A stretch of 64,000 bases of DNA from NCBI GenBank assembly GCA_963664945.1, contig OY761822.1:406080-470079 (forward strand), given 5' to 3'. This DNA comes from Gammaproteobacteria bacterium (GTDB lineage Bacteria; Pseudomonadota; Gammaproteobacteria; Steroidobacterales; Rariloculaceae). Position numbers and translations under genes: made by a program. This document shows positions 19,876 to 30,395 of this stretch, one piece after another. How positions within the stretch are numbered: the first letter of the stretch is position 1; every line of letters starts with the position of its first letter. The notes under the pieces are model-generated. The model saw only the letters and a list, made by a program, of their open reading frames with translations. It was not told the DNA's origin and ran no database searches.

Positions 19876-20766
19876 TCAGGACCTTGGGCTGCGCCCCAGT
19901 TGCTCGATAATCCCCTCCAGCTCATCGACACCGTGATAGCGAATGATGACCCGCCCTCCCCTGGCGCGGTGGTCGATCCGGACCGTAGCGCCGAGCCGGT
20001 CGCTCAACCGGGTTTCCAGGCGCCGCACATCCGGGTCCCGGGCTGGCGCTGGCGGCTGCTTCTTCGCGGGCTGCGCCAACCGGTTCACGGCGCGTTCGGT
20101 TTCACGCACGCTCCAGCCCTGCTGAGCGGCGCGCCTGGCCAGGGCCACCAGCGCCTCGGGGTCCTCCAGCGCCAGCAGGGCTCTCGCATGCCCCATGTTC
20201 AGCGACCTCCCCTCGACCATCTCCTTGACCTCGTCGGGCAGTTCCAGCAACCGCATCAGGTTGGTCACGGCCGCTCTTGAACGACCGACCGCGTCCGCGG
20301 CCTCGGCATGGGTCATATCGAATTCGTTCACCAGGCGCCTCAGCGCCCCGGCTTCCTCAAGCGGATTCAGGTCCTCCCGCTGCATGTTCTCGATCAGCCC
20401 GACGGCCACCGCCGCGCGATCGGGCATGTCCCTGACGAGGGCGGGGACCGCGTCGAGACCGGCCATTTGGGCGGCGCGCCAGCGACGCTCCCCGGCGACA
20501 ATTTCGTAACGGGTTTCGGCTCCGCCTTCCAAGGCGTTCAAGGGACGTACGATGATGGGCTGTACCAGGCCCTCGGAGCGGATCGAGTCCGCCAACTCCT
20601 GAAGCGACTCCTGGCGCATGTCCACGCGCGGCTGGTAGCGGCCCCGTTCCAGGAGGTCGACGGGCACTTCGCGAAGACCATCCTGCGCGTCGGGCTGCGA
20701 TGCCACCGGTTCGGCGCCCAGCAGCGCCTCCAGGCCGCGGCCGAGGCTTTTTCGCTTAGGCCGCAT
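19876..20766 (-). CDS. parB: chromosome partitioning protein ParB
   Basis: KRKSLGRGLEALLG N-terminus, the GERRWRAA box and an HTH. Confidence 0.95.
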   Translation of the reverse strand: MRPKRKSLGRGLEALLGAEPVASQPDAQDGLREVPVDLLERGRYQPRVDMRQESLQELADSIRSEGLVQPIIVRPLNALEGGAETRYEIVAGERRWRAAQMAGLDAVPALVRDMPDRAAVAVGLIENMQREDLNPLEEAGALRRLVNEFDMTHAEAADAVGRSRAAVTNLMRLLELPDEVKEMVEGRSLNMGHARALLALEDPEALVALARRAAQQGWSVRETERAVNRLAQPAKKQPPAPARDPDVRRLETRLSDRLGATVRIDHRARGGRVIIRYHGVDELEGIIEQLGRSPRS

Positions 20767-20916: not shown

Positions 20917-21696
20917 TCAAAGTGTCGCCGGCACCGCCTCGCGGCGGTTGATTTCACCGGCCAGCGCCAGGTAGGCCAAAGCCCCCGCGGAGGACTTGTC
21001 GTGATAGAGCGCGGGCTTGCCGAAACTGGGCGCTTCGGCCAGGCGCACATTGCGCGGAATCACGGTTCGGAACACTCCGTCGCCGAAATGTTCCAGAAGC
21101 TGGCTGGATACCTCCCTGGTCAGGTTGGTCCTGCCGTCGAACATGGTGCGCAGGATGCCGTGAATCCGCAGCGCCGGATTCACGCTGCGGCGGATCTCCT
21201 CCACGGTCTCCAGCAGCGCCCGCAGCCCTTCCAGCGCCAGGTATTCGCACTGAATGGGTATCAGGACGCCCGTGGCAGCCGCCAGGGCGTTGAGAGTAAG
21301 CATGTTGATAGCGGGCGGGCAATCCACCAGCACGTAGTCGTAGTCCTCTTTCAGCGGCGTGAGGATCTGCTTGAGCCGCCGCTCGCGCCCGGGGTGGGTA
21401 AGGAGCCTGACTTCGGCCACGGTGAGATCCTGATTGGCGGGAAGCACGCCGAATCCTCCCACGCTTGCGGCCCGAACCGCTGCGGACGCATCGCCTTCAC
21501 CCAGGAGCAGGTCGCAGACGGTGACCTCCATGTCCTCCCGGTCCACGCCGCAGCCCACCGTGGCATTGCCCTGGGGGTCCATGTCCACCACCAGCACCCG
21601 CCGGCGCGTGGCGGCCAGGGACGCGGCAAGATTGATGCAGGTGGTGGTCTTGCCCACCCCGCCCTTGCGGTTGGCTATGGCGATGATCTGTGCCAC
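20917..21696 (-). CDS. parA: chromosome partitioning ATPase ParA/Soj
   Basis: (V)AQIIAIANRKGGVGKTTT deviant Walker A. GTG 21696 preferred over the longer track ORF. Confidence 0.93.
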   Translation of the reverse strand: MAQIIAIANRKGGVGKTTTCINLAASLAATRRRVLVVDMDPQGNATVGCGVDREDMEVTVCDLLLGEGDASAAVRAASVGGFGVLPANQDLTVAEVRLLTHPGRERRLKQILTPLKEDYDYVLVDCPPAINMLTLNALAAATGVLIPIQCEYLALEGLRALLETVEEIRRSVNPALRIHGILRTMFDGRTNLTREVSSQLLEHFGDGVFRTVIPRNVRLAEAPSFGKPALYHDKSSAGALAYLALAGEINRREAVPATL

Positions 21697-22158
21697 GGAA
21701 CCCAAGCCCTTTAGCTTGCGCCACAGGATGAGTCGCGGTCGAAAAAGTCGCGCGGACGGGTGACGAAATCGATCGAGAGAATACGGAAAATGAAGCACCG
21801 GTCACGATTCGGCCGCGCCCAGGCTGGACGCCGTCCCGTGCGCGGAACACAAATCTGTAGAGTCTGCGAACAAATTCGGGATTGATTCTGCGGCCAGTCC
21901 GGCATAATTTCATTCCTCATCCTGTTGCGCCTTGTATGGAACATACGTAACTCATTGATTTACGTCCGCGCAATGTTCCTTCCGCGACAGCGGGGCAGCG
22001 TGTTGCGCCGCCGTGGCACGCTTTAGCTTTTGCATGTTCGACTCCGCATATCTTCGCAAGCCGTCCTTCTCCTACAGCGGTATGATGAACCAAGCGGCCT
22101 GCGCCCGTGTGCCTAAATGGCGGAGCTGGTGGGCGCCGCCATCCAAAGGAGACCAAAG

Positions 22159-23181
22159 ATGCCGGAAAAACAAGCCGTTGTTCAAGTCAGAGAGATAGAC
22201 TTTGACACGGACAACCCTCGGATCAAGAAAGCGATCGAGAAATACGGAGGCCAGTTGACCCCGCAGCAGATTCACTTCGCCCTGAGATCCGCTGCAAACG
22301 GTCCCGCTTCTTCCTTCAGCAGTCTCAAGGACTCAGTCCGTGCCAGCAAGGGCATCCTCTCCCCAATAACGCTCATAAGGAAAGGCGGGCGATACATATG
22401 CATCGACGGGAATACAAGGCTTGCCATATACCGGGAATTCGACAAGGAGAACGTCGCGGGCGACTGGTCCCGAATCAAGTCGCTGATAATTGAGGGTGCC
22501 ACGCAACCCGACATCGAGATGCGCCGCGTCTCCGCACATCTGGTCGGGGCGCGGGAGTGGCCCGCATATGAGAAGGCCCGCTATCTTCACTACCTTCGCA
22601 ACGAAAAGCTGTGGGACTATGGCAGGTTGATCGAATTATGCGGGGGCAACAAGGCCGAAATAGAACGGCAAATCGACGCCTACCACGACATGAACGAGTT
22701 CTACCGGGACGTCGTGGATGACACCGCCTTCCAGATCGACCGCTTCAGCGGCTTCGTCGAACTGCAAAAGCCGCGGGTCAAGCAGGCCATTTTCGGCGCT
22801 GGTCTAGGCTTGGAGGACTTTGGCGAGTGGATTCGCGACGGGAAGATATATCGCTTGGAGGATACGCGGAAACTGCCACAAGTGTTGGCGGACGATGAGG
22901 CAAGGAGCATATTTCTTTCGGGAGGCCCCAGATCTATAGAGGACGCAGTTCGTTCGCTGGAGCAAAAGCGCGCGGCGGACCGCAATACTGACAAACTGCT
23001 CCTAATGGACGCATCGATTGCCGAGCTGGCAGATTTGCTAGTCAAACGGATCAACGAAATGCCCTACTCTGAAATCAGGGTTCTCAGAAACCGGGACCGG
23101 GAGGAATCAAGGGAACAGGTAGCCGTATTGGAGGATCTGGCGGTGCGGCTTGGAGGCTTGCTCCACGATGTCGCAGAGTGA
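22159..23181 (+). CDS. ParB/Srx-fold N-terminal domain protein (paralog 1), first gene of the plus operon of the island
   Basis: ATG 22159 follows AAAGGAG. Motifs ..IDFDTDNPR.. and ..ICIDGNTRLAIYREF.. correspond to ParB-N boxes (xxNPR, DG..R). Shares ..W.AYEKA.. with the 28311..29306 protein. Confidence 0.75.
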   Translation: MPEKQAVVQVREIDFDTDNPRIKKAIEKYGGQLTPQQIHFALRSAANGPASSFSSLKDSVRASKGILSPITLIRKGGRYICIDGNTRLAIYREFDKENVAGDWSRIKSLIIEGATQPDIEMRRVSAHLVGAREWPAYEKARYLHYLRNEKLWDYGRLIELCGGNKAEIERQIDAYHDMNEFYRDVVDDTAFQIDRFSGFVELQKPRVKQAIFGAGLGLEDFGEWIRDGKIYRLEDTRKLPQVLADDEARSIFLSGGPRSIEDAVRSLEQKRAADRNTDKLLLMDASIAELADLLVKRINEMPYSEIRVLRNRDREESREQVAVLEDLAVRLGGLLHDVAE

Positions 23182-23611
23182 TGAACATCGCGTGCTGGTG
23201 CTCCATACAGTCGATGCGCTGATCCATCGCCACCCCGAAGTGAACATTGCGGCGGACATTCAGGCGAGCCCGGGCGACCCTGTCCCGCCTTTGATCGACG
23301 GGTTCAGGCCCGACATCTATGCTTGGCTGCCTCGGACTGGCTCGCTCGTCATCGCGGAAGCCAAGACGCACAGGGACATCTGGAACTCCCATACCCGTAG
23401 TCAGGCGCGCTCCTTTATTGCCCATATCGAAGACTCCGCTGGAGGACGGTTTATTCTGTGCGCTTGGGGCCACAACGCAGACCGCGCTAAAACGCTGCTT
23501 CGATTCTTGATGAGGGAACTCCGTCCTACAGGAGTATCGGCTCAGGTGTTCGACGGCTGCGATTTTTGGACGCTTGACGCGAGCAATGGCATCATATGGC
23601 ATTTAGATTAA
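23168..23611 (+). CDS. small PD-(D/E)xK-type putative nuclease
   Basis: GFRPD-x14-EAK (..RPDIYAWLPRTGSLVIAEAKT..) fits the D...ExK restriction-endonuclease-fold core. Overlaps the upstream gene by 14 nt and the downstream gene by 16 nt. Confidence 0.6.
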   Translation: MSQSDEHRVLVLHTVDALIHRHPEVNIAADIQASPGDPVPPLIDGFRPDIYAWLPRTGSLVIAEAKTHRDIWNSHTRSQARSFIAHIEDSAGGRFILCAWGHNADRAKTLLRFLMRELRPTGVSAQVFDGCDFWTLDASNGIIWHLD

Positions 23612-25053
23612 GAAAACCTCCCAGCTTTTCGGTCAAGCACAAAGCCTACGCCTACCAACTTGACGCGGTTCGGGCGGTACGGGACCTTCGCTATGCCGCC
23701 GTATTTCACGAACAAGGACTTGGGAAAACAAAAATTGCCATCGACCTGATGCTGCAATGGCTGGAAGAGGATGCAGTCGATACGGTTTTCGTAGTCACAA
23801 AGAAGACCTTGGTGCAGAACTGGGTGGAGGAACTCGCCGCCCATTCTTACGTTACACCCAGCGTCTTGTCTCAGGACCGGCGCAGAAACAGCATCGCACT
23901 GAATTCGCCGGTGCTCATTTACGTGATGAACTACGAAGTCATCAGCGCCAACCTGAAACTAATTCAAATGTTCCTTGATACATGCCGCGTAGCGGCCATT
24001 CTGGACGAGTCGCAAAAAATAAAAAACCCCGAATCGAAACTCACGCGGAACATGCATTGCCTGGCCGGGCGATTTGAGCGACGAGTCATACTGACGGGCA
24101 CGCCGGTCGCAAATCGACCTTTCGACATCTGGTCGCAAATCAAATTCCTTGACGGTGGGCAATCGCTGGGGCAGTCGTTCGCCGCTTTCAAGGCTGAGAT
24201 GGATTTGCCGCCAAGTTTGGCCGCGAAGGGTGGCTACGGTCGGAAGTTGGCGGAAGTCATGGCGAACATTGGCGATTTCGCAGTCAGGGAAACCAAGGAA
24301 ACGGCGGGAATCCGGCTTCCAGACAAGACTATCGTGCCTCACTTCGTGTGCATGGAACCGGGGCAGCAGGAAGTCTATGACAACTATAAGATCCGGATGC
24401 GCCATGAGTTGCGAACCGGTGACGACTCCTTCATGGACAACGCGGAGCATGTGCTTAAGCGTCTGTTGCGGCTTGTGCAGTGCGCGTCCAACCCCGCGCT
24501 GATTGATTCACAATATGCCGAGGAGCCAGCCAAGCTGCTCAAGCTGCGAGAAGTTCTCGCAGGAGTTCGGACAGACGCGACAAAGGTCATCGTATGGACG
24601 AGCTTCGTTGAGAATGTCGAGTGGCTCAGGCGCAAGTTGTCCCGCTACGCTCCCGCCACCGTGCACGGGGGACATTCAACAGCGGACCGGAACGGCGAAA
24701 TAGGGCGCTTCAAGCAAGATGAGAAGTGCCGCGTGCTTGTCGCCACGCCAGGCGCGGCAAAGGAAGGCCTCACCTTGACCATGGCAACCCACGCCGTGTT
24801 TTTTGATCGCGGCTTCAGCCTGGATGACTACATCCAGGCGCAGGACCGCATTCACCGAATCTCGCAACATGACGAGTGTTTTGTGCATAACCTGATGGTG
24901 GCGGGAAGCATTGATGAATGGGTCGATGCCCTATTGCATGCCAAGCATCACGCTGCCCGGCTGACCCAGGGAGACATGCGGCTTGCGGAGTTTCGGGAAG
25001 CCTACACCTTGGACATAAGCGATGTGCTGAAAGAGGTATTGGGGGAGACATAG
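23596..25053 (+). CDS. compact SNF2-family (SF2) ATPase/translocase
   Basis: Helicase motifs HEQGLGKT (I), ILDESQKIKN (II), LTGTPVANR (III), AAKEGLTLT (V) and QAQDRIHRISQ (VI). 485 aa, with no obvious extra domains. Confidence 0.88.
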   Translation: MAFRLRKPPSFSVKHKAYAYQLDAVRAVRDLRYAAVFHEQGLGKTKIAIDLMLQWLEEDAVDTVFVVTKKTLVQNWVEELAAHSYVTPSVLSQDRRRNSIALNSPVLIYVMNYEVISANLKLIQMFLDTCRVAAILDESQKIKNPESKLTRNMHCLAGRFERRVILTGTPVANRPFDIWSQIKFLDGGQSLGQSFAAFKAEMDLPPSLAAKGGYGRKLAEVMANIGDFAVRETKETAGIRLPDKTIVPHFVCMEPGQQEVYDNYKIRMRHELRTGDDSFMDNAEHVLKRLLRLVQCASNPALIDSQYAEEPAKLLKLREVLAGVRTDATKVIVWTSFVENVEWLRRKLSRYAPATVHGGHSTADRNGEIGRFKQDEKCRVLVATPGAAKEGLTLTMATHAVFFDRGFSLDDYIQAQDRIHRISQHDECFVHNLMVAGSIDEWVDALLHAKHHAARLTQGDMRLAEFREAYTLDISDVLKEVLGET

Positions 25054-25163
25054 CGGCTATCGGCCCATATTCGCCCAACATGACCGGCGAGCCATGGACA
25101 ATCAAGGGGGGCCTTCCAGAACGCGCCCCTGTTTTCCGTCCAGTGACGGATGTAATCGACAGG

Positions 25164-26627
25164 TCAATGGCCACCACTGCGCACTTCTTCCAGCACGGCA
25201 TCGATCATTTCCTTCGCCGCCCGTGGCGATGGCGACGTCTTGGCCAGCGCCCGGAAGACGTTTCGATAAATGTCCGCGTCCTGTTCTTCGAATAGTGCGT
25301 CGCCGTTACGGACCGCGCGGAAACCGTCCAGGCGCGCTTCAGCAGAATCCAGAATGCTCAGATTGCCGTGCTCTGCCTCGCCGCTCTTGACTATAGCGGT
25401 CCGAGCCTGCCGAACGCGCTGTGCTGCGCCCGCTATCAGGCAAGTGGCATCTCGGTGCGTCAAGTATCCAGAGCCGGCAAGCTCGCAAGTGTCGTCAATG
25501 TCAGCTAACAGGGATTGCAATTTGCGCGTCCTGTTACGCTTTTTCGATTCGTTACGGCAACGGTCCGCGATTTTGCGGCAAACCGCCGCGAGATGATTCT
25601 CGAAGTTACGAACATGCGGCCCGGGCTCAAAGTAATCGCGCCGGGCGTTGGGAACCATTTCCGAATCCAGCACATGGATTTCGCCAACACACCACCGATT
25701 GAAGCGCTCTTCCGGAAACAGGTGATCGAAAATCGACTCGTCTCCTATCTGAATGTTCCCCATGCGCGCCCGTATTCCCCGGATTCCCAATCGCTTGGGA
25801 ATTGCGCCGAGATAGGATGAGTGCATCACCCAGCCCACTGCTGCGGCGTTACCTCCATTCAATGAGGGGATGCGCACAGGCTCCAACGCCTTGAAAGGGT
25901 CACTCTTGCCTTCCGAGAAGTCGATCGCGGGACCGTGCGGACGTGTAACCGGCATCGGGTCGCCCGCTATCGTCACGCGCAGGGACAACGGCGAAACATG
26001 CTCTGCAAAGACTTCATCGATCTCTTTCGCGAATGGGTGTCCCGACCGCATCGGAACGGGGCAGACCTCGCCGATATAGGCACGCACCAGCCGCTCATTC
26101 AGTATCGCTCCGGCGACGTGGCGCCCCACTCCGCGAATCTGCGCCTCGAAAAAATGTCCCGGTCGCTCAGTGCCACTGGGAGAGTCAACAGTTACGCAGG
26201 CACGGAGCGCGTCCCAGGTCGGCTTGGCGCCGCGCATGCGCCGATTGATTTCCAAACCGTCCCAAACCACCCTTGTGACGGGGCCGCCTGCGCTGGAGCG
26301 AGTCAGGAAAGTTACGCTATCCGCAAAAGCCAGCCCGGAAAGGCGCCCAATTCCACGAAACCCCCTGTCGCGGCCCAGCGACTTCCGGCTTTGCGCCACG
26401 GGCAGCAGCGCTTGCTCGGCCTCGCCCGGCGAGAGCCCCGGTCCGTCGTCCAGTATGGTGATGCTGGCCTCCCCGCGGTTTACGGTGACAACGACAGACC
26501 CGCGCCGACCGTCGGACTGGGCCAAGGAGTCTGCGGAATTTTGAATATATTCCCGGTAGACCGCCAGCGGATTGTCGTACATGCCGGAAGTGATCAACCG
26601 GAAAATTCCCGCGCCCACGCTGGTCAT
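25164..26627 (-). CDS. GHKL (Bergerat-fold, Hsp90/MORC-like) ATPase
   Basis: N-box REYIQNSADS, G1 box ILDDGPGL, G2 box GFRGIGRLSG. ATG 26627 avoids overlap with the upstream gene. Last gene of the minus operon. Confidence 0.8.
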   Translation of the reverse strand: MTSVGAGIFRLITSGMYDNPLAVYREYIQNSADSLAQSDGRRGSVVVTVNRGEASITILDDGPGLSPGEAEQALLPVAQSRKSLGRDRGFRGIGRLSGLAFADSVTFLTRSSAGGPVTRVVWDGLEINRRMRGAKPTWDALRACVTVDSPSGTERPGHFFEAQIRGVGRHVAGAILNERLVRAYIGEVCPVPMRSGHPFAKEIDEVFAEHVSPLSLRVTIAGDPMPVTRPHGPAIDFSEGKSDPFKALEPVRIPSLNGGNAAAVGWVMHSSYLGAIPKRLGIRGIRARMGNIQIGDESIFDHLFPEERFNRWCVGEIHVLDSEMVPNARRDYFEPGPHVRNFENHLAAVCRKIADRCRNESKKRNRTRKLQSLLADIDDTCELAGSGYLTHRDATCLIAGAAQRVRQARTAIVKSGEAEHGNLSILDSAEARLDGFRAVRNGDALFEEQDADIYRNVFRALAKTSPSPRAAKEMIDAVLEEVRSGGH

Positions 26628-26658
26628 TCTTCCTCGCTCGCCTCCGACATGGCGACCT

Positions 26659-28314
26659 CTATATCGCCTTGCCAGGTTCTGGCAAGACCCGGGTCGCGCT
26701 GCGCCGCCCGTCGGCTTGTTCCGCCGAGAAAAGGCCGGCATCCTCCACAATTTCCTCTTCGGCAGGCAGGTTGCCGCCAACGTCGAAACAGGGCAGCGAG
26801 GGTTGCGCGCCTTCATTCACGCTCCCGATCTTGTTTCTCGTGTCCAGAACGTAAAATCGAATCACCTCGCGGATGCCGCGGTCCACGCCACCGTCGCAAG
26901 CCCATCGGAGGTAATTTACTCGTCGTGCCCCGGAAGAAGCACCGGAGTTGGCAAGCAGTTGGACCAGTTCGCCCTCCTGGCGTTCCGAGAGCCGCCGCCG
27001 TGCGGCCTCGTATTCATCGCGTACCGCCTTGCCAGCCCCTTTCTCATAGTGTTCCCGGTGGAAAATAAAGCCGTGGGGCAAGGTCAGCAATCGCTCGAAT
27101 TCGTGCCTGCCGCCGCCATAGGCGCGTGCGAAAAAATCCGCGCTACCGCTCACAATGCCCCGCGTCGCCTGCAGCATGATCTGAAAGGACCGCAGGAAGT
27201 AGGGGTTCCAATTCCTTCCCACATGCGAACGGTCCTTGAGGTTGACTGGTTGATACCTCATTGGGAAAGACCAGATGCGAATGCCAAGTTCACGATTAAG
27301 TTCCATATTCATTCGCATGCGTTCGTACAAGTCCGCCGGAGAATCCATGAAGTTGTAGAGCATGTAGTTGGACAAGTTGACGATGGCGTTGTCTGCCGCC
27401 ATGCGCACGGCCTTTTCGTAAATCTTGCGCATGCCCACGTGATCGAATGCGATGCGCAGAGGGCTGATGCAGATGGTTGAGATTTCCTTCAGAAACACCG
27501 GGGACTTGACCAATATTCTGGCATCGACACCCTGATTGAAATCCACCCGCCTCTTGACGGTACCGGCTCCGTCTCGCCTGAGCGTTGCGTCGGGAACAAA
27601 TCCCAGATCGCGTATTTCGGCGATGATCTCCTTGAACCGGGGGGCCGCCGTAACGTTGTTGTCCATTAGTATCAGGTCTTTTTTTTCGCCATGCGCCCGT
27701 GCGATACCAGACACCAGCCGGGAAAGCGGCGGCATGTCGCGCTGCGCGCCTTCCAGTTTCGGAACACCGCAGAATCTACATCGCCGCACGCAGCCGCGCG
27801 AGGCATACCCGAAGTAGGCATCGTAAACAGGGTATCGGTACTCCGCCTGATCCAAAATCGAATAGTCGGGGACGAGTTCCTCGATCGGGGCCCCCTGGAG
27901 GTCGGCCGCGCCGAAGTCGCCATCGCCGTCGCTTAGCTGAAGGGATACTGCGGGCGGGCCACTCAACAGACCCTTGATGAACCGCACTCCCGCCCATCTT
28001 GGCTCCTTCAGGTACTCGTCGTGCATCAAAGACGCGGCAATTCCCCCCACGAACACCCTTTCCGGCTGCCCATTGGCGGCTCGAAGCGCAAAGTCTATGG
28101 CAGTAGCTGTTCGACTCCACTCGAAGCTGAACAGCGTGGTCACATACACCCGGTCCCAGGCTCGGTCGAAAACGTGAGGGTCCTCTCCCTTCACGAAGGC
28201 GACGCGGTCGCCGCGCCCTTGGGGGCCGTGATAAGCGGCAAGCTTCATCAGACCCAGAGGTGGGTACTTATTCCGGTAACCCGGTTCGATAAGCAGGATG
28301 TTGCGGCGGCTCAT
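26659..28314 (-). CDS. radical SAM enzyme with B12-binding-like N-terminal domain
   Basis: N-terminus ILLIEPGYRNKYPPLGLMKLAAY (class-B-type Rossmann domain). Cluster motif YASRGCVRRCRFCGV (CxxxCxxC at 27769..27792). ATGA overlap with the upstream ParB-like gene. Confidence 0.85.
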   Translation of the reverse strand: MSRRNILLIEPGYRNKYPPLGLMKLAAYHGPQGRGDRVAFVKGEDPHVFDRAWDRVYVTTLFSFEWSRTATAIDFALRAANGQPERVFVGGIAASLMHDEYLKEPRWAGVRFIKGLLSGPPAVSLQLSDGDGDFGAADLQGAPIEELVPDYSILDQAEYRYPVYDAYFGYASRGCVRRCRFCGVPKLEGAQRDMPPLSRLVSGIARAHGEKKDLILMDNNVTAAPRFKEIIAEIRDLGFVPDATLRRDGAGTVKRRVDFNQGVDARILVKSPVFLKEISTICISPLRIAFDHVGMRKIYEKAVRMAADNAIVNLSNYMLYNFMDSPADLYERMRMNMELNRELGIRIWSFPMRYQPVNLKDRSHVGRNWNPYFLRSFQIMLQATRGIVSGSADFFARAYGGGRHEFERLLTLPHGFIFHREHYEKGAGKAVRDEYEAARRRLSERQEGELVQLLANSGASSGARRVNYLRWACDGGVDRGIREVIRFYVLDTRNKIGSVNEGAQPSLPCFDVGGNLPAEEEIVEDAGLFSAEQADGRRSATRVLPEPGKAI

Positions 28315-29306
28315 CCGGACTTCCGGCGTTTCGCCATCTTTTCGATGCGGCTGAGCGCATTGCGCAGCTTGCGCAGATCATAGTCAAAAGCGTTGAATTC
28401 GCCAGGCTCCAGTTCGCGCACCTGCCCGTCCGAAATATCCTCCAATATCCCTCTGACCCTCTGAAGCGCTTTCCGCGGTTTGCTGATTGAGGCGCGACTG
28501 TAGGCATCGTCGAGCTCAAGGTTGTCACGGACAAGCTTCCTCAAGATTTTCTTTTTCTTTAGGATGACGGGAAGCTTCTTCCTCATCTCCTGCGCGGAAA
28601 AAGGCTTATCTTGTCTCCTGATGCTGTCCCTGATCCACGAGCAAAACTCGTCATCCCGATCCATGGTTGAATTGATTGCCGGGTTGCGCACGATTACATC
28701 GTAGTAGCTGAAATTGGATTGTTCACCATCTTCATTTTGCCGCATGGCCTCAATCACCTTGACGCGCGTTCTTATCGTTTGCTGCGATTCGCCGAACAGC
28801 TTGGCCATGGAGTTATACGACTGCCCTTTCCCGTGACGGACATAGGCGAAATTTGCCTTCTCATACGCCGTCCACTTTGTTTTCCCCTTGATGTGAATCT
28901 GATTGAGGTAGGCGGCCTGCTGCTCTTCCGTCAGACTGCTGACCATATCGCAATCAATCTCGGCCCACTGGCCTTTCCCATCGTCCTTATGCAAGAGCCG
29001 ATAGACAGCGAGCCGCGAGTTGCCCTCAATGACTTCCATGGTGTCCAGACGAACAAGAATTGGCTCCAGTAGCCCACCGTGGCGCTTGATGTCCTCTTGG
29101 AGATTCTTGACGCTCGGCTCCTTTCTCAGCGCCCGGAACATTTCCGCTTGCTGCTCGTCGGGGGTTCTGCTATTGAAGCGGGGCTGGCCCTGAGTAACCG
29201 TGTACACCCTCGGGTTCTCCTTCAGGAACCGCAGACTGAATATATCCATCCGGCCGCTAGCGACGGGAATGGACTGGCCCAAAATTGCTATTGTCTTGTC
29301 CGCCAT
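28311..29306 (-). CDS. ParB/Srx-fold N-terminal domain protein (paralog 2), first gene of the minus operon of the island
   Basis: ATG 29306 follows GGAGG. Motifs ..RFLKENPR.. and ..VIEGNSRLAVYRLL.., then ..WTAYEKA.. Lys-rich C-terminal region. Confidence 0.75.
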   Translation of the reverse strand: MADKTIAILGQSIPVASGRMDIFSLRFLKENPRVYTVTQGQPRFNSRTPDEQQAEMFRALRKEPSVKNLQEDIKRHGGLLEPILVRLDTMEVIEGNSRLAVYRLLHKDDGKGQWAEIDCDMVSSLTEEQQAAYLNQIHIKGKTKWTAYEKANFAYVRHGKGQSYNSMAKLFGESQQTIRTRVKVIEAMRQNEDGEQSNFSYYDVIVRNPAINSTMDRDDEFCSWIRDSIRRQDKPFSAQEMRKKLPVILKKKKILRKLVRDNLELDDAYSRASISKPRKALQRVRGILEDISDGQVRELEPGEFNAFDYDLRKLRNALSRIEKMAKRRKSG

Positions 29307-29693
29307 ACACCTCCCTGGATATGGACCAAACGTAGATGCGGCTTCCTCGGAGCGTGCCTCAGCGAACAATTCGGACGAAAGGCGGGAGTTAACAGGGACA
29401 CCACCAAGCGCACATACCCTTCCGCAAGCCGGGCGGCCCAATGCTCGGGCTGCCAAGACCTACTTGGTCGCTGGTTTCACCACAGCGTCTGGCAAGCGGC
29501 ATCTTAGAGGAATTTCTCCAGAGACCCAAAACCAAGCGCCCCCGTTGAATCGTAGCGTTGCAACTGGCGGAGTGATTCCCGCGCTGTCCAAATCTTCGAT
29601 CTGAATTCAATTGCTTTTCTCCGCATGCTGCCTCCATCGACCATGCAGACTCCCTTGCCAACCCAAACGTTTACCTCCATGTGCACTGGTTCG

Positions 29694-30350
29694 CTACTCC
29701 CACTTTCTGCGCGCAATCAGCAGGCTGCCTCCGGACCAAGGCCCCGTCGGCACAAAACAGCGGACATCGAACCGACCATCCCGAGGCAGCGGCTCGCCGG
29801 CGGTCCGCTTTCCAACCGGCATCAGCAGCACGGTTTCGCGCCCGAAAAGGCCCGCCGAGAGCCGCAGCACCTCCCCCGGAGACGCGACCGCGCGGGCGAG
29901 CAGGGTATCGAACGGCCCAACGTCGACCATGGACTCGACCCGGCAATGTTTCACAGCAATGTTTCCCAGTCCCAGCCGGCCTTGCACATGCCGTAGGAAC
30001 GCGGCGCGTTTGCCGCGACTTTCTATGAGCGTGAAATGCCTGCAAGGCTCCACGACCGCAAGCGGCAACCCGGGCGCTCCGGCGCCGCTGCCGATGTCGG
30101 CGATGCGGGACCCATCGAGCATGGGGCGCAGCGAGAGGCTTTCGATTACGTGGCGGCGGACCATCGCATCAGGGTCGGCGACCGCCGTCAGATTGTGGAC
30201 GCGATTCCAGCGGCGGATTTCGTCAATGTACCCGGCCAAGGCGGCGGCTTGCCCAGGGGTCGCCATCAGTCCCGCGACGGCAAGCAACCGGTCGAGCCGC
30301 TCCCGCGTGACGCCCCCGACGGCTTCAGGCGCGGCAGGTTGATTTCTCAT
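29694..30350 (-). CDS. rsmG: 16S rRNA (guanine527-N7)-methyltransferase
   Basis: ..IADIGSGAGAPGLPLA.. SAM motif and GidB-family length. Start is ATG 30350 or GTG 30395. Confidence 0.9.
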   Translation of the reverse strand: MRNQPAAPEAVGGVTRERLDRLLAVAGLMATPGQAAALAGYIDEIRRWNRVHNLTAVADPDAMVRRHVIESLSLRPMLDGSRIADIGSGAGAPGLPLAVVEPCRHFTLIESRGKRAAFLRHVQGRLGLGNIAVKHCRVESMVDVGPFDTLLARAVASPGEVLRLSAGLFGRETVLLMPVGKRTAGEPLPRDGRFDVRCFVPTGPWSGGSLLIARRKWE

Positions 30351-30395
30351 GACCGCAGTATAGCCCGCGGCGATTCGGCGAACCGCCTGATCCAC

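Follow-up and report, generated by a model that had tools for sequence, protein, structure and literature searches.

Two ParB-like paralogs in a horizontally mobile gene cassette with a putative nuclease, an SNF2-family ATPase and a radical SAM enzyme

Why should a small genomic island encode two ParB-like proteins, one at the head of each of its two gene runs? The question is raised by a 64,000-nucleotide stretch of the genome of a Gammaproteobacteria bacterium (contig OY761822.1 of assembly GCA_963664945.1, positions 406,080-470,079 of the forward strand), which we call the window and in which the chromosomal genes parA and rsmG bracket an island of lower G+C content (0.56-0.60, against about 0.65-0.67 around it). 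The island holds six genes in two convergent three-gene runs, A-B-C on the plus strand and D-E-F on the minus strand, with A and D the ParB-like proteins. A preliminary description, made from the sequence of the window, had proposed that each run is an enzymatic module with a ParB-type clamp or loader of its own. Comparison with some 100 related loci, which span at least 10 phyla and are typically arranged as A-B-C-D and then E-F, gives a different division: across the family, D belongs to an A-B-C-D block and E-F is a separable unit, to which D has become newly coupled in the clade that includes the window. The features discussed, with their positions in the window, are as follows.

22159..23181, plus strand: gene A, ParB-like paralog 1, 340 amino acids, with a ParB/Srx N-terminal domain (NPR, GNTR), a helix-turn-helix (HTH) and a helical C-terminal domain
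23168..23611, plus strand: gene B, putative PD-(D/E)xK nuclease, 147 amino acids, with a PD...ExK motif
23596..25053, plus strand: gene C, compact SNF2-family ATPase, 485 amino acids, with Pfam domains SNF2-rel_dom and Helicase_C
28311..29306, minus strand: gene D, ParB-like paralog 2, 331 amino acids, with NPR, EGNSRLA, an HTH and a helical C-terminal domain
26659..28314, minus strand: gene E, radical SAM enzyme, 551 amino acids, with CX3CX2C and an N-terminal Rossmann/B12-binding-like domain
25164..26627, minus strand: gene F, GHKL (Bergerat-fold, HSP90/MutL-like) ATPase, 487 amino acids from the conserved start, with Pfam domain HATPase_c_3
19876..20766, minus strand: canonical chromosomal ParB, a comparator outside the system (ParB_N 5.5e-36, HTH_ParB, ParB_C)
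20917..21798, minus strand: chromosomal ParA, left flank (AAA_31 5.5e-60); the longest open reading frame is given, and translation probably starts downstream of 21798
29694..30395, minus strand: rsmG (gidB), right flank (GidB 8.5e-39)

The open reading frames of A and D lie where the preliminary description had placed them and have the lengths it gave, each opens its own three-gene run, and the three pairs of motifs by which they had been likened are present (IDFDTDNPR in A and RFLKENPR in D; SPITLIRKGGRYICIDGNTRLAIYREF and EPILVRLDTMEVIEGNSRLAVYRLL; EWPAYEKARY and TKWTAYEKANF). The two proteins are collinear relatives that align by BLASTP at 25% identity across 183 amino acids (E-value 1e-15), and the profile of the A family matches that of the D family across 273 columns with a probability of 99.9% and an E-value of 1e-33. 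Both E-values are well past chance, so A and D are true paralogs and not members of unrelated families. To the chromosomal ParB they show E-values of only 0.04 (A) and 0.02 (D), across 21-33 residues, and that protein alone carries the GRGLEALLG peptide and the GERRWRA box, a distinction drawn correctly at the outset. A tree of the N-terminal halves of both families has one branch dividing A from D (support 99/100), with a single copy of each per locus and with subclades that mirror one another, as a single ancient duplication followed by co-diversification would leave them; these data indicate that a canonical-type ParB was duplicated once, long ago, to give A and D. A family search of the window's own genome returned these two copies only. 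The D family comprises 639 clusters at 90% identity, none of which has a name or a Pfam domain, and a search with A returned 651 clusters at 50% identity (E-value <= 1e-3), the weakest of which may belong to the D family. N-terminally extended relatives of A contained no informative fusion domains.

Because A and D of the window themselves gave nothing significant in Pfam, NCBIfam or PADLOC (no Pfam match at E-value <= 0.1), their assignment to ParB comes from family members and from structure. Pfam ParB_N (PF02195) matches 27 of 38 A-family members, at best with an E-value of 2e-9, and one relative of A, P0154, scores 27.6 against a cutoff of 26.3. Among D-family members the same model matches five of 24, weakly (best E-value 0.008), and HTH models (Sigma70_r4, HTH_3) match more often than it does; ParB-like families of PHROG match D at 7e-8 and 3e-6. 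The AlphaFold models of A and D (pLDDT 90.3 and 86.6) recover, in Foldseek searches of the PDB, ParB-family structures as the top 34 and top 39 matches, respectively, including ParB, Spo0J, Noc, KorB, pNOB8 ParB and PadC; the ParB/Srx fold first read from the sequence is thus borne out, at the level of predicted fold. Further down the list for A stand sulfiredoxin (6ky4, 3cyi) and the serine kinase SbnI, and the D family profile searched against PDB sequences gave a chance match to SpoVG only. Since the Foldseek alignments, of 200-290 columns, cover both the N-terminal domain and the HTH of ParB, Noc and KorB, A and D are canonical-type ParBs and not members of the DUF262/DndB branch; neither has a Pfam DndB match or the DGQ(H/Q)R motif, in place of which both have (D/E)GN[T/S]R. 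Their C-terminal halves, noted as helical in the preliminary description, are all-helical in the models, where the last ~140 amino acids form a domain different from ParB_C, a model that neither protein matches. The only PADLOC models touched by both are those of the candidate systems PD-Lambda-5_A and PDC-M38A, and these matches are very weak (E-values 7.7e-5 to 0.02) and limited to the ParB-N/HTH stretch of profiles of 454-715 positions; no other gene of the cassette is matched by models of these systems.

The putative nucleotide pocket is strongly kept. NPR and GNTR (in A) or GNSR (in D) are invariant in 60-61 of 61 systems, the Gly and Arg of the GxxR phosphate-binding motif are retained in all 61 in both paralogs, and the third position of Box II is, nearly without exception, T in A and S in D.

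A ParB fold with an HTH, in an island that adjoins chromosomal parAB, might at first suggest ordinary partition or segregation proteins of a plasmid or integrated element. However, none of the approximately 100 cassettes contains a ParA gene, and A and D lack the N-terminal ParA-binding peptide (GRGLxALL occurs in the chromosomal ParB only), GERRxRA and ParB_C. Moreover, the cassettes lie in Mb-sized chromosomes at unrelated sites, and A and D are without exception accompanied by a nuclease, an SNF2 ATPase and a radical SAM enzyme. A search made without a site model turned up no convincing parS-type repeats within the island or next to it. With neither a ParA gene nor a ParA-binding peptide, A and D are not plasmid-partition proteins, and we consider this explanation effectively refuted.

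If not partition, then which partners do A and D serve? We addressed this through gene order, spacing and co-evolution. Every locus with enough flanking sequence holds both A and D, with the exception of two A-only loci, both decayed (see below). D homologues were found in 41 genome loci, and A-B-C-D-E-F is co-directional in 33 genomes. An A-seeded scan of metagenome and viral contigs, with hidden Markov models for the six families, gave 48 classifiable loci in these arrangements.

23 loci: A-B-C-D-E-F, co-directional
7 loci: A-B-C-D, then inverted F-E
5 loci: divergent F-E, then A-B-C-D
4 loci: E-F, then A-B-C-D
3 loci: A-B-C-D without standard E-F
6 loci: odd or cut variants (for example A-B-C-D-E stopped by the contig end)

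Outside the window's lineage, all 16 rearranged loci are split between D and E, and none between C and D. In the three loci without standard E-F, a short radical SAM gene with CX3CX2C lies immediately upstream of A. In loci of the L121 type (L121:3114-4418, L135, L142, L127) the gene just upstream of A encodes a 434-amino-acid radical SAM protein (GFTTRGCIRHCDFC); these loci have no GHKL gene, and uncharacterized proteins of 805 and 511 amino acids come after D. Spacing divides the genes at the same point: in the diverged systems the median A-B, B-C and C-D gaps are 2-4 nucleotides (C-D, 2 nucleotides), whereas D and E never overlap and lie a median of 317 nucleotides apart.

Evolutionary distances follow the same two blocks. 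Among 58 non-redundant systems, Spearman correlations of distance matrices are 0.81-0.89 within {A, B, C, D} and 0.88 for E-F, against 0.68-0.73 across blocks; for D they are 0.81-0.86 with A, B or C and 0.68-0.73 with E or F, a bootstrap difference of 0.135 (95% interval 0.05-0.22). In the subset of 20 diverged systems the values are 0.57-0.74 against a cross-block range of 0.22-0.29 (D with E or F, 0.22-0.24). Shared ancestry inflates all of these correlations, although the block pattern is still clear.

The E-F unit often has a ParB-superfamily protein of its own. In about 20 diverged loci a gene X, encoding 330-350 amino acids, lies directly upstream of E and travels with E-F in every arrangement (for example L119:13032-14090, and L044:10044-11048 in the cultured Geobacter argillaceus ATCC BAA-1139). 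X is a DndB-family protein (Pfam DndB 1e-12, with a DGQHR-type motif), and it is absent from what we call the main clade, in which the window falls. Because X heads E-F in many loci, the radical SAM module often has its own ParB-superfamily leader, and that leader is X, not D.

We give an even chance to the best-supported reading, in which A and D are obligatory paired, DNA-binding, nucleoside triphosphate (NTP)-gated subunits of a nuclease–motor module in a restriction-modification-like system. This module would consist of A, the PD-(D/E)xK protein B, the SNF2 ATPase C and D, and would pair with the separable radical SAM enzyme E and GHKL ATPase F in a horizontally mobile DNA-marking or defence cassette. 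A and D would bind DNA jointly as an NTP-gated clamp or sensor, possibly as a heterodimer, that loads or licenses the B nuclease and the C motor on target DNA, while E-F, together with the DndB-like X where present, would provide the chemistry, either by marking DNA or by making a nucleotide product. The window's clade has lost X, and translation of D there has become coupled to that of E, so that in this clade D probably forms a bridge to the radical SAM module as well.

Besides the inflation of the correlations, several observations weigh against this reading. First, Box II in A and D is GN[T/S]RL, with a single Arg, and not GERRxRA, while the ENxQR of Box III is replaced (Q/N-x-H), by (S/Q)AHLVG in A and NQIHVKG in D; given these changes, the CTPase activity of both proteins may be absent or altered, and nucleotide binding is a plausible property drawn from two motifs only. 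Second, the flanks of the cassettes are mostly housekeeping genes and not classic defence islands, and no known defence model of PADLOC matches B, E or F. Third, D is tied to E in the main clade, where the stop codon of D and the start codon of E share nucleotides in 25 of 37 loci (in the window as ATGA) and the median C-D gap is 22 nucleotides. A degraded IS21-like element (IstA and IstB fragments) lies in the C|D spacer of a main-clade cassette that is otherwise intact (L032:6074-9000). Finally, the window and two loci at the same site, L051 and L052 (whose D proteins are 88% and 79% identical to that of the window), are split at C|D with D-E-F inverted as a unit, an inversion limited to the window's lineage.

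This last group of observations fits, locally, the scheme that had been proposed, in which each enzymatic module has its own ParB-like loader, with A serving B-C and D serving E-F. It is joined by a D-F correlation of 0.76 in the main clade, and by X itself, which makes a ParB-type leader for the E-F module a recurring theme. However, all 16 rearrangements outside the window's lineage leave D with A-B-C while E-F, plus X where present, move alone; in the diverged systems D and E never overlap and C-D is tight; D co-evolves with A, B and C; and in L121-type loci D stands at the opposite end of the operon from the radical SAM gene. One loader per module is therefore a description that suits the window's surroundings, in the D-E overlap and the D-E-F inversion, and fails family-wide on breakpoints, spacing and correlations; as a general account we judge it unlikely. 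Grouped with A-B-C throughout the family and coupled to E-F in the window's clade, D behaves as a hinge.

Two further roles for the paralogs deserve mention. First, A, D or both could be KorB- or DndB-like transcriptional regulators that control when, or how strongly, toxic modules are expressed, in the manner of the controller proteins of restriction-modification systems. DndB has been reported as a negative regulator of dnd (PMC10853773), both proteins have an HTH, A is always the first gene, and both models have their best TM-score, normalized to target length, against 8qa9, the KorB-KorA repressor complex, with 0.60 for D and 0.55 for A. Yet two proteins of ~335 amino acids with invariant pockets and long conserved C-terminal domains are heavy for controllers, D closes the A-B-C-D operon in the diverged systems, conservation is like that of enzymes (mean pairwise distance 0.51 for A and 0.60 for D, compared with 0.63 for B and 0.62 for F), and a search for a conserved operator-like repeat found none. 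We consider a regulatory role quite improbable.

Second, A, D or both could be enzymatic effectors of the ParB/Srx type, breaking down DNA or using up nucleotides in the role of Osa-like nickases or NTPases. Nuclease or ATPase activity is known for some members of ParB/Srx (Maindola 2014, as cited in PMC10853773 and PMC12839542), and the pocket residues of A and D are invariant. Against this, the cassette always includes a dedicated PD-(D/E)xK protein with an intact motif, and the structural neighbours of A and D are HTH-bearing, clamp-type ParBs and not the Osa, DUF262 or GmrSD types, which makes an effector function very improbable.

The remaining cassette proteins bear on what A and D would act with. 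B overlaps A by 14 nucleotides and C by 16 nucleotides; in an alignment of its family the D of the PD...ExK motif is kept in 61, the E in 61 and the K in 60 of 61 systems, and it is a putative PD-(D/E)xK nuclease, although neither Pfam nor PADLOC matches it and its profile searched against PDB sequences gave nothing meaningful. C matches Pfam SNF2-rel_dom (8.5e-27) and Helicase_C (4.8e-15), as well as the PADLOC models ZorD (3e-41) and DpdE (9.5e-35), the latter two over the motor core alone, making it a bare SNF2 motor. One locus has a second SNF2 helicase, of 1235 amino acids, after a shortened radical SAM gene (L112:5741-9445).

E matches Pfam Radical_SAM at 7.5e-5, which is under the curated cutoff, and PHROG 9298 at 1.3e-39; its diverged homologues have B12-binding matches. 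The three Cys of CX3CX2C are invariant in 61 of 61 systems, and the family profile aligns in the PDB only with the CX3CX2C stretch of RimO. Matches to RimO and MiaB had made a methylthiotransferase a candidate, which we rejected because the single further invariant Cys cannot make an auxiliary cluster. F matches Pfam HATPase_c_3 at 7.3e-9, its family profile is closest to HtpG in the PDB (1e-9), and its motifs ExxxNxxD, DxGxG and GxxGxG are invariant across the 61 systems. Phage records contain no match to D. They do contain two distant solitary homologues of E, one of which, a 360-amino-acid protein with 30% identity in the temperate phage Marinitoga camini virus 1 (L146, KP836355.1 37383-38465), adjoins a HerA helicase and a NurA-like exonuclease near lysogeny genes.

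How has the cassette come to be where it is? Its carriers include Nitrospirota, Binatia, Gammaproteobacteria, Alphaproteobacteria, Thermodesulfobacteriota, Acidobacteriota, Latescibacterota, Gemmatimonadota and Nitrospinota, at 40-69% identity, with values of 50-65% between phyla, and eight cassettes lie on IMG/VR contigs. Presence is sporadic: the D family was found in none of 60 relatives of the window's genome, where the one match is an A-only remnant in a congener (G001). Judging from the record titles of L004-L040, nearly all main-clade carriers are metagenome-assembled genomes with sponge- or coral-holobiont names (Poriferihabitaceae, Spongiihabitans, APA_bin, Plut_), and these titles, the only basis here, suggest a habitat-linked horizontal spread of the main-clade cassettes. 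A search of the island and its surroundings found no convincing border repeats, tRNA genes or promoters. The flanks of 33 cassettes have no recurrent neighbours beyond occasional DndB-type genes and methylases, with an N6_N4 methylase, Fic or toxin-antitoxin genes at some loci. Directly after F in two main-clade loci lies a gene for a protein of ~770 amino acids in which a DndB-type ParB domain is combined with a Swt1-like HEPN domain at the C-terminus (L015:13247-15559, L016:13453-15738); such a fusion has a typical defence effector architecture and is a possible seventh gene. Along with X, the neighbouring methylase, Fic and toxin-antitoxin genes, the sporadic presence and the IMG/VR contigs, it speaks for a defence or modification setting.

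Congeners differ at the parA|rsmG junction, the site of one of the two decayed loci. In the congener, A is kept at 90% amino acid identity at the same parA|rsmG site (the parA left flank is common to L051, L052 and G001), and B to F are replaced by a fusion of an N6_N4 methylase and an HNH domain, plus an AAA ATPase; the replaced stretch is 10797-13641 of L050 (G001:C1:866000-885999), against 23198-29692 of the window. In that genome parB and parA are also separated by an additional insert of 2.6 kb, and the region upstream of A is present in a further, inverted copy of 93 bp (L050 5879-5971, matching window 22023-21932). In the other A-only locus (L063), a transposase-associated open reading frame (DDE_Tnp_1_assoc) follows A in the place of B.

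Among known systems, the closest to the cassette are the ParB clamps, Dpd and Dnd, and the ParB-DUF262 sensors. Like the ParB/Spo0J, Noc and KorB clamps, A and D have a ParB/Srx N-terminal domain, an HTH and a further C-terminal domain, and share with them the Box I Arg (xPR) and the Gly and final Arg of Box II. Unlike these clamps, they have GN[T/S]R and a replaced Box III, lack a ParA-binding peptide, ParB_C, a ParA partner and an evident parS, and form an obligate paralog pair inside a nuclease/SNF2/radical SAM cassette.

Among modification systems, Dpd combines modification (DpdA-DpdB-DpdC) with restriction (DpdD-K), its ParB-superfamily ATPase DpdB working with a DNA-modifying enzyme and SNF2-type helicases (DpdE) serving in the restriction part (PMC12839542). 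Our cassette is likewise multi-gene and restriction-modification-like, its C protein resembles DpdE, and a DndB/DpdB-like X precedes the radical SAM gene in many relatives. However, its six genes include no DpdA (TGT) or DpdC domains, the putative modifier is a radical SAM enzyme with a GHKL ATPase, C corresponds to the helicase core alone of the much longer DpdE, and A and D are HTH-bearing canonical-type ParBs and not of the DGQHR type of DpdB. In Dnd, the ParB-superfamily protein DndB accompanies a modification module (DndACDE) that is separable from the restriction module (DndFGH) (PMC10853773). About 20 related cassettes share with Dnd a DndB-family gene, whereas homologues of DndA, C, D and E are absent and the window's own cassette is without a DndB-family gene. 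Finally, Menshen NsnA, GmrSD and SspE each combine a ParB-superfamily NTPase with a DNA-binding domain, a combination proposed to sense DNA and so switch on an ATPase and a nuclease (PMC12065111), but these belong to the DUF262 branch with DGxQR, have an ABC ATPase and HNH or BECR effectors as partners, and operate with a single ParB-like protein and no radical SAM enzyme.

The preliminary description had regarded the architecture as undescribed, and our literature searches likewise gave no published account of the cassette, or of clamp-type ParBs that occur as a pair in a setting of this kind. No Pfam, NCBIfam or PADLOC model represents the cassette; no curated family or defence-system model accounts for A, B or D, and E is covered only in its cluster-binding stretch. 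The known ParB-superfamily proteins of defence and modification (DndB, DpdB, NsnA) are single accessory subunits. For clamp-type ParBs the known settings are segregation, nucleoid occlusion and repression by KorB. The cassette has a duplicated clamp-type ParB, HTH included, and both copies are fixed in a nuclease-SNF2 module that is always accompanied by a radical SAM enzyme, in families carried by several hundred protein clusters and many phyla.

What the comparisons show is the paralogy, the ParB fold, the conserved pocket motifs, the division into modules, the mobility and the lack of a partition setting; that NTPs gate A and D, that the two act jointly, that the cassette modifies DNA and that it serves in defence are inferences. 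A bolder and rather doubtful version of the proposed function has a heterodimeric, nucleotide-gated A-D clamp tell DNA with a mark installed by the radical SAM enzyme from DNA without it, and license the PD-(D/E)xK nuclease and the SNF2 motor. If this version were true, the ParB clamp family would gain its first heteromeric member, and the cassette would be a new class of restriction-modification-like immunity built on radical chemistry on DNA. More generally, should the proposed function hold, heteromeric forms with a part in immunity would be added to the known ParB clamps, the cassette would become a testable candidate for radical SAM chemistry on DNA or nucleotides in defence, and the swappable (X)-E-F beside a constant A-B-C-D would provide a natural experiment on how ParB-type proteins and enzymes are matched.

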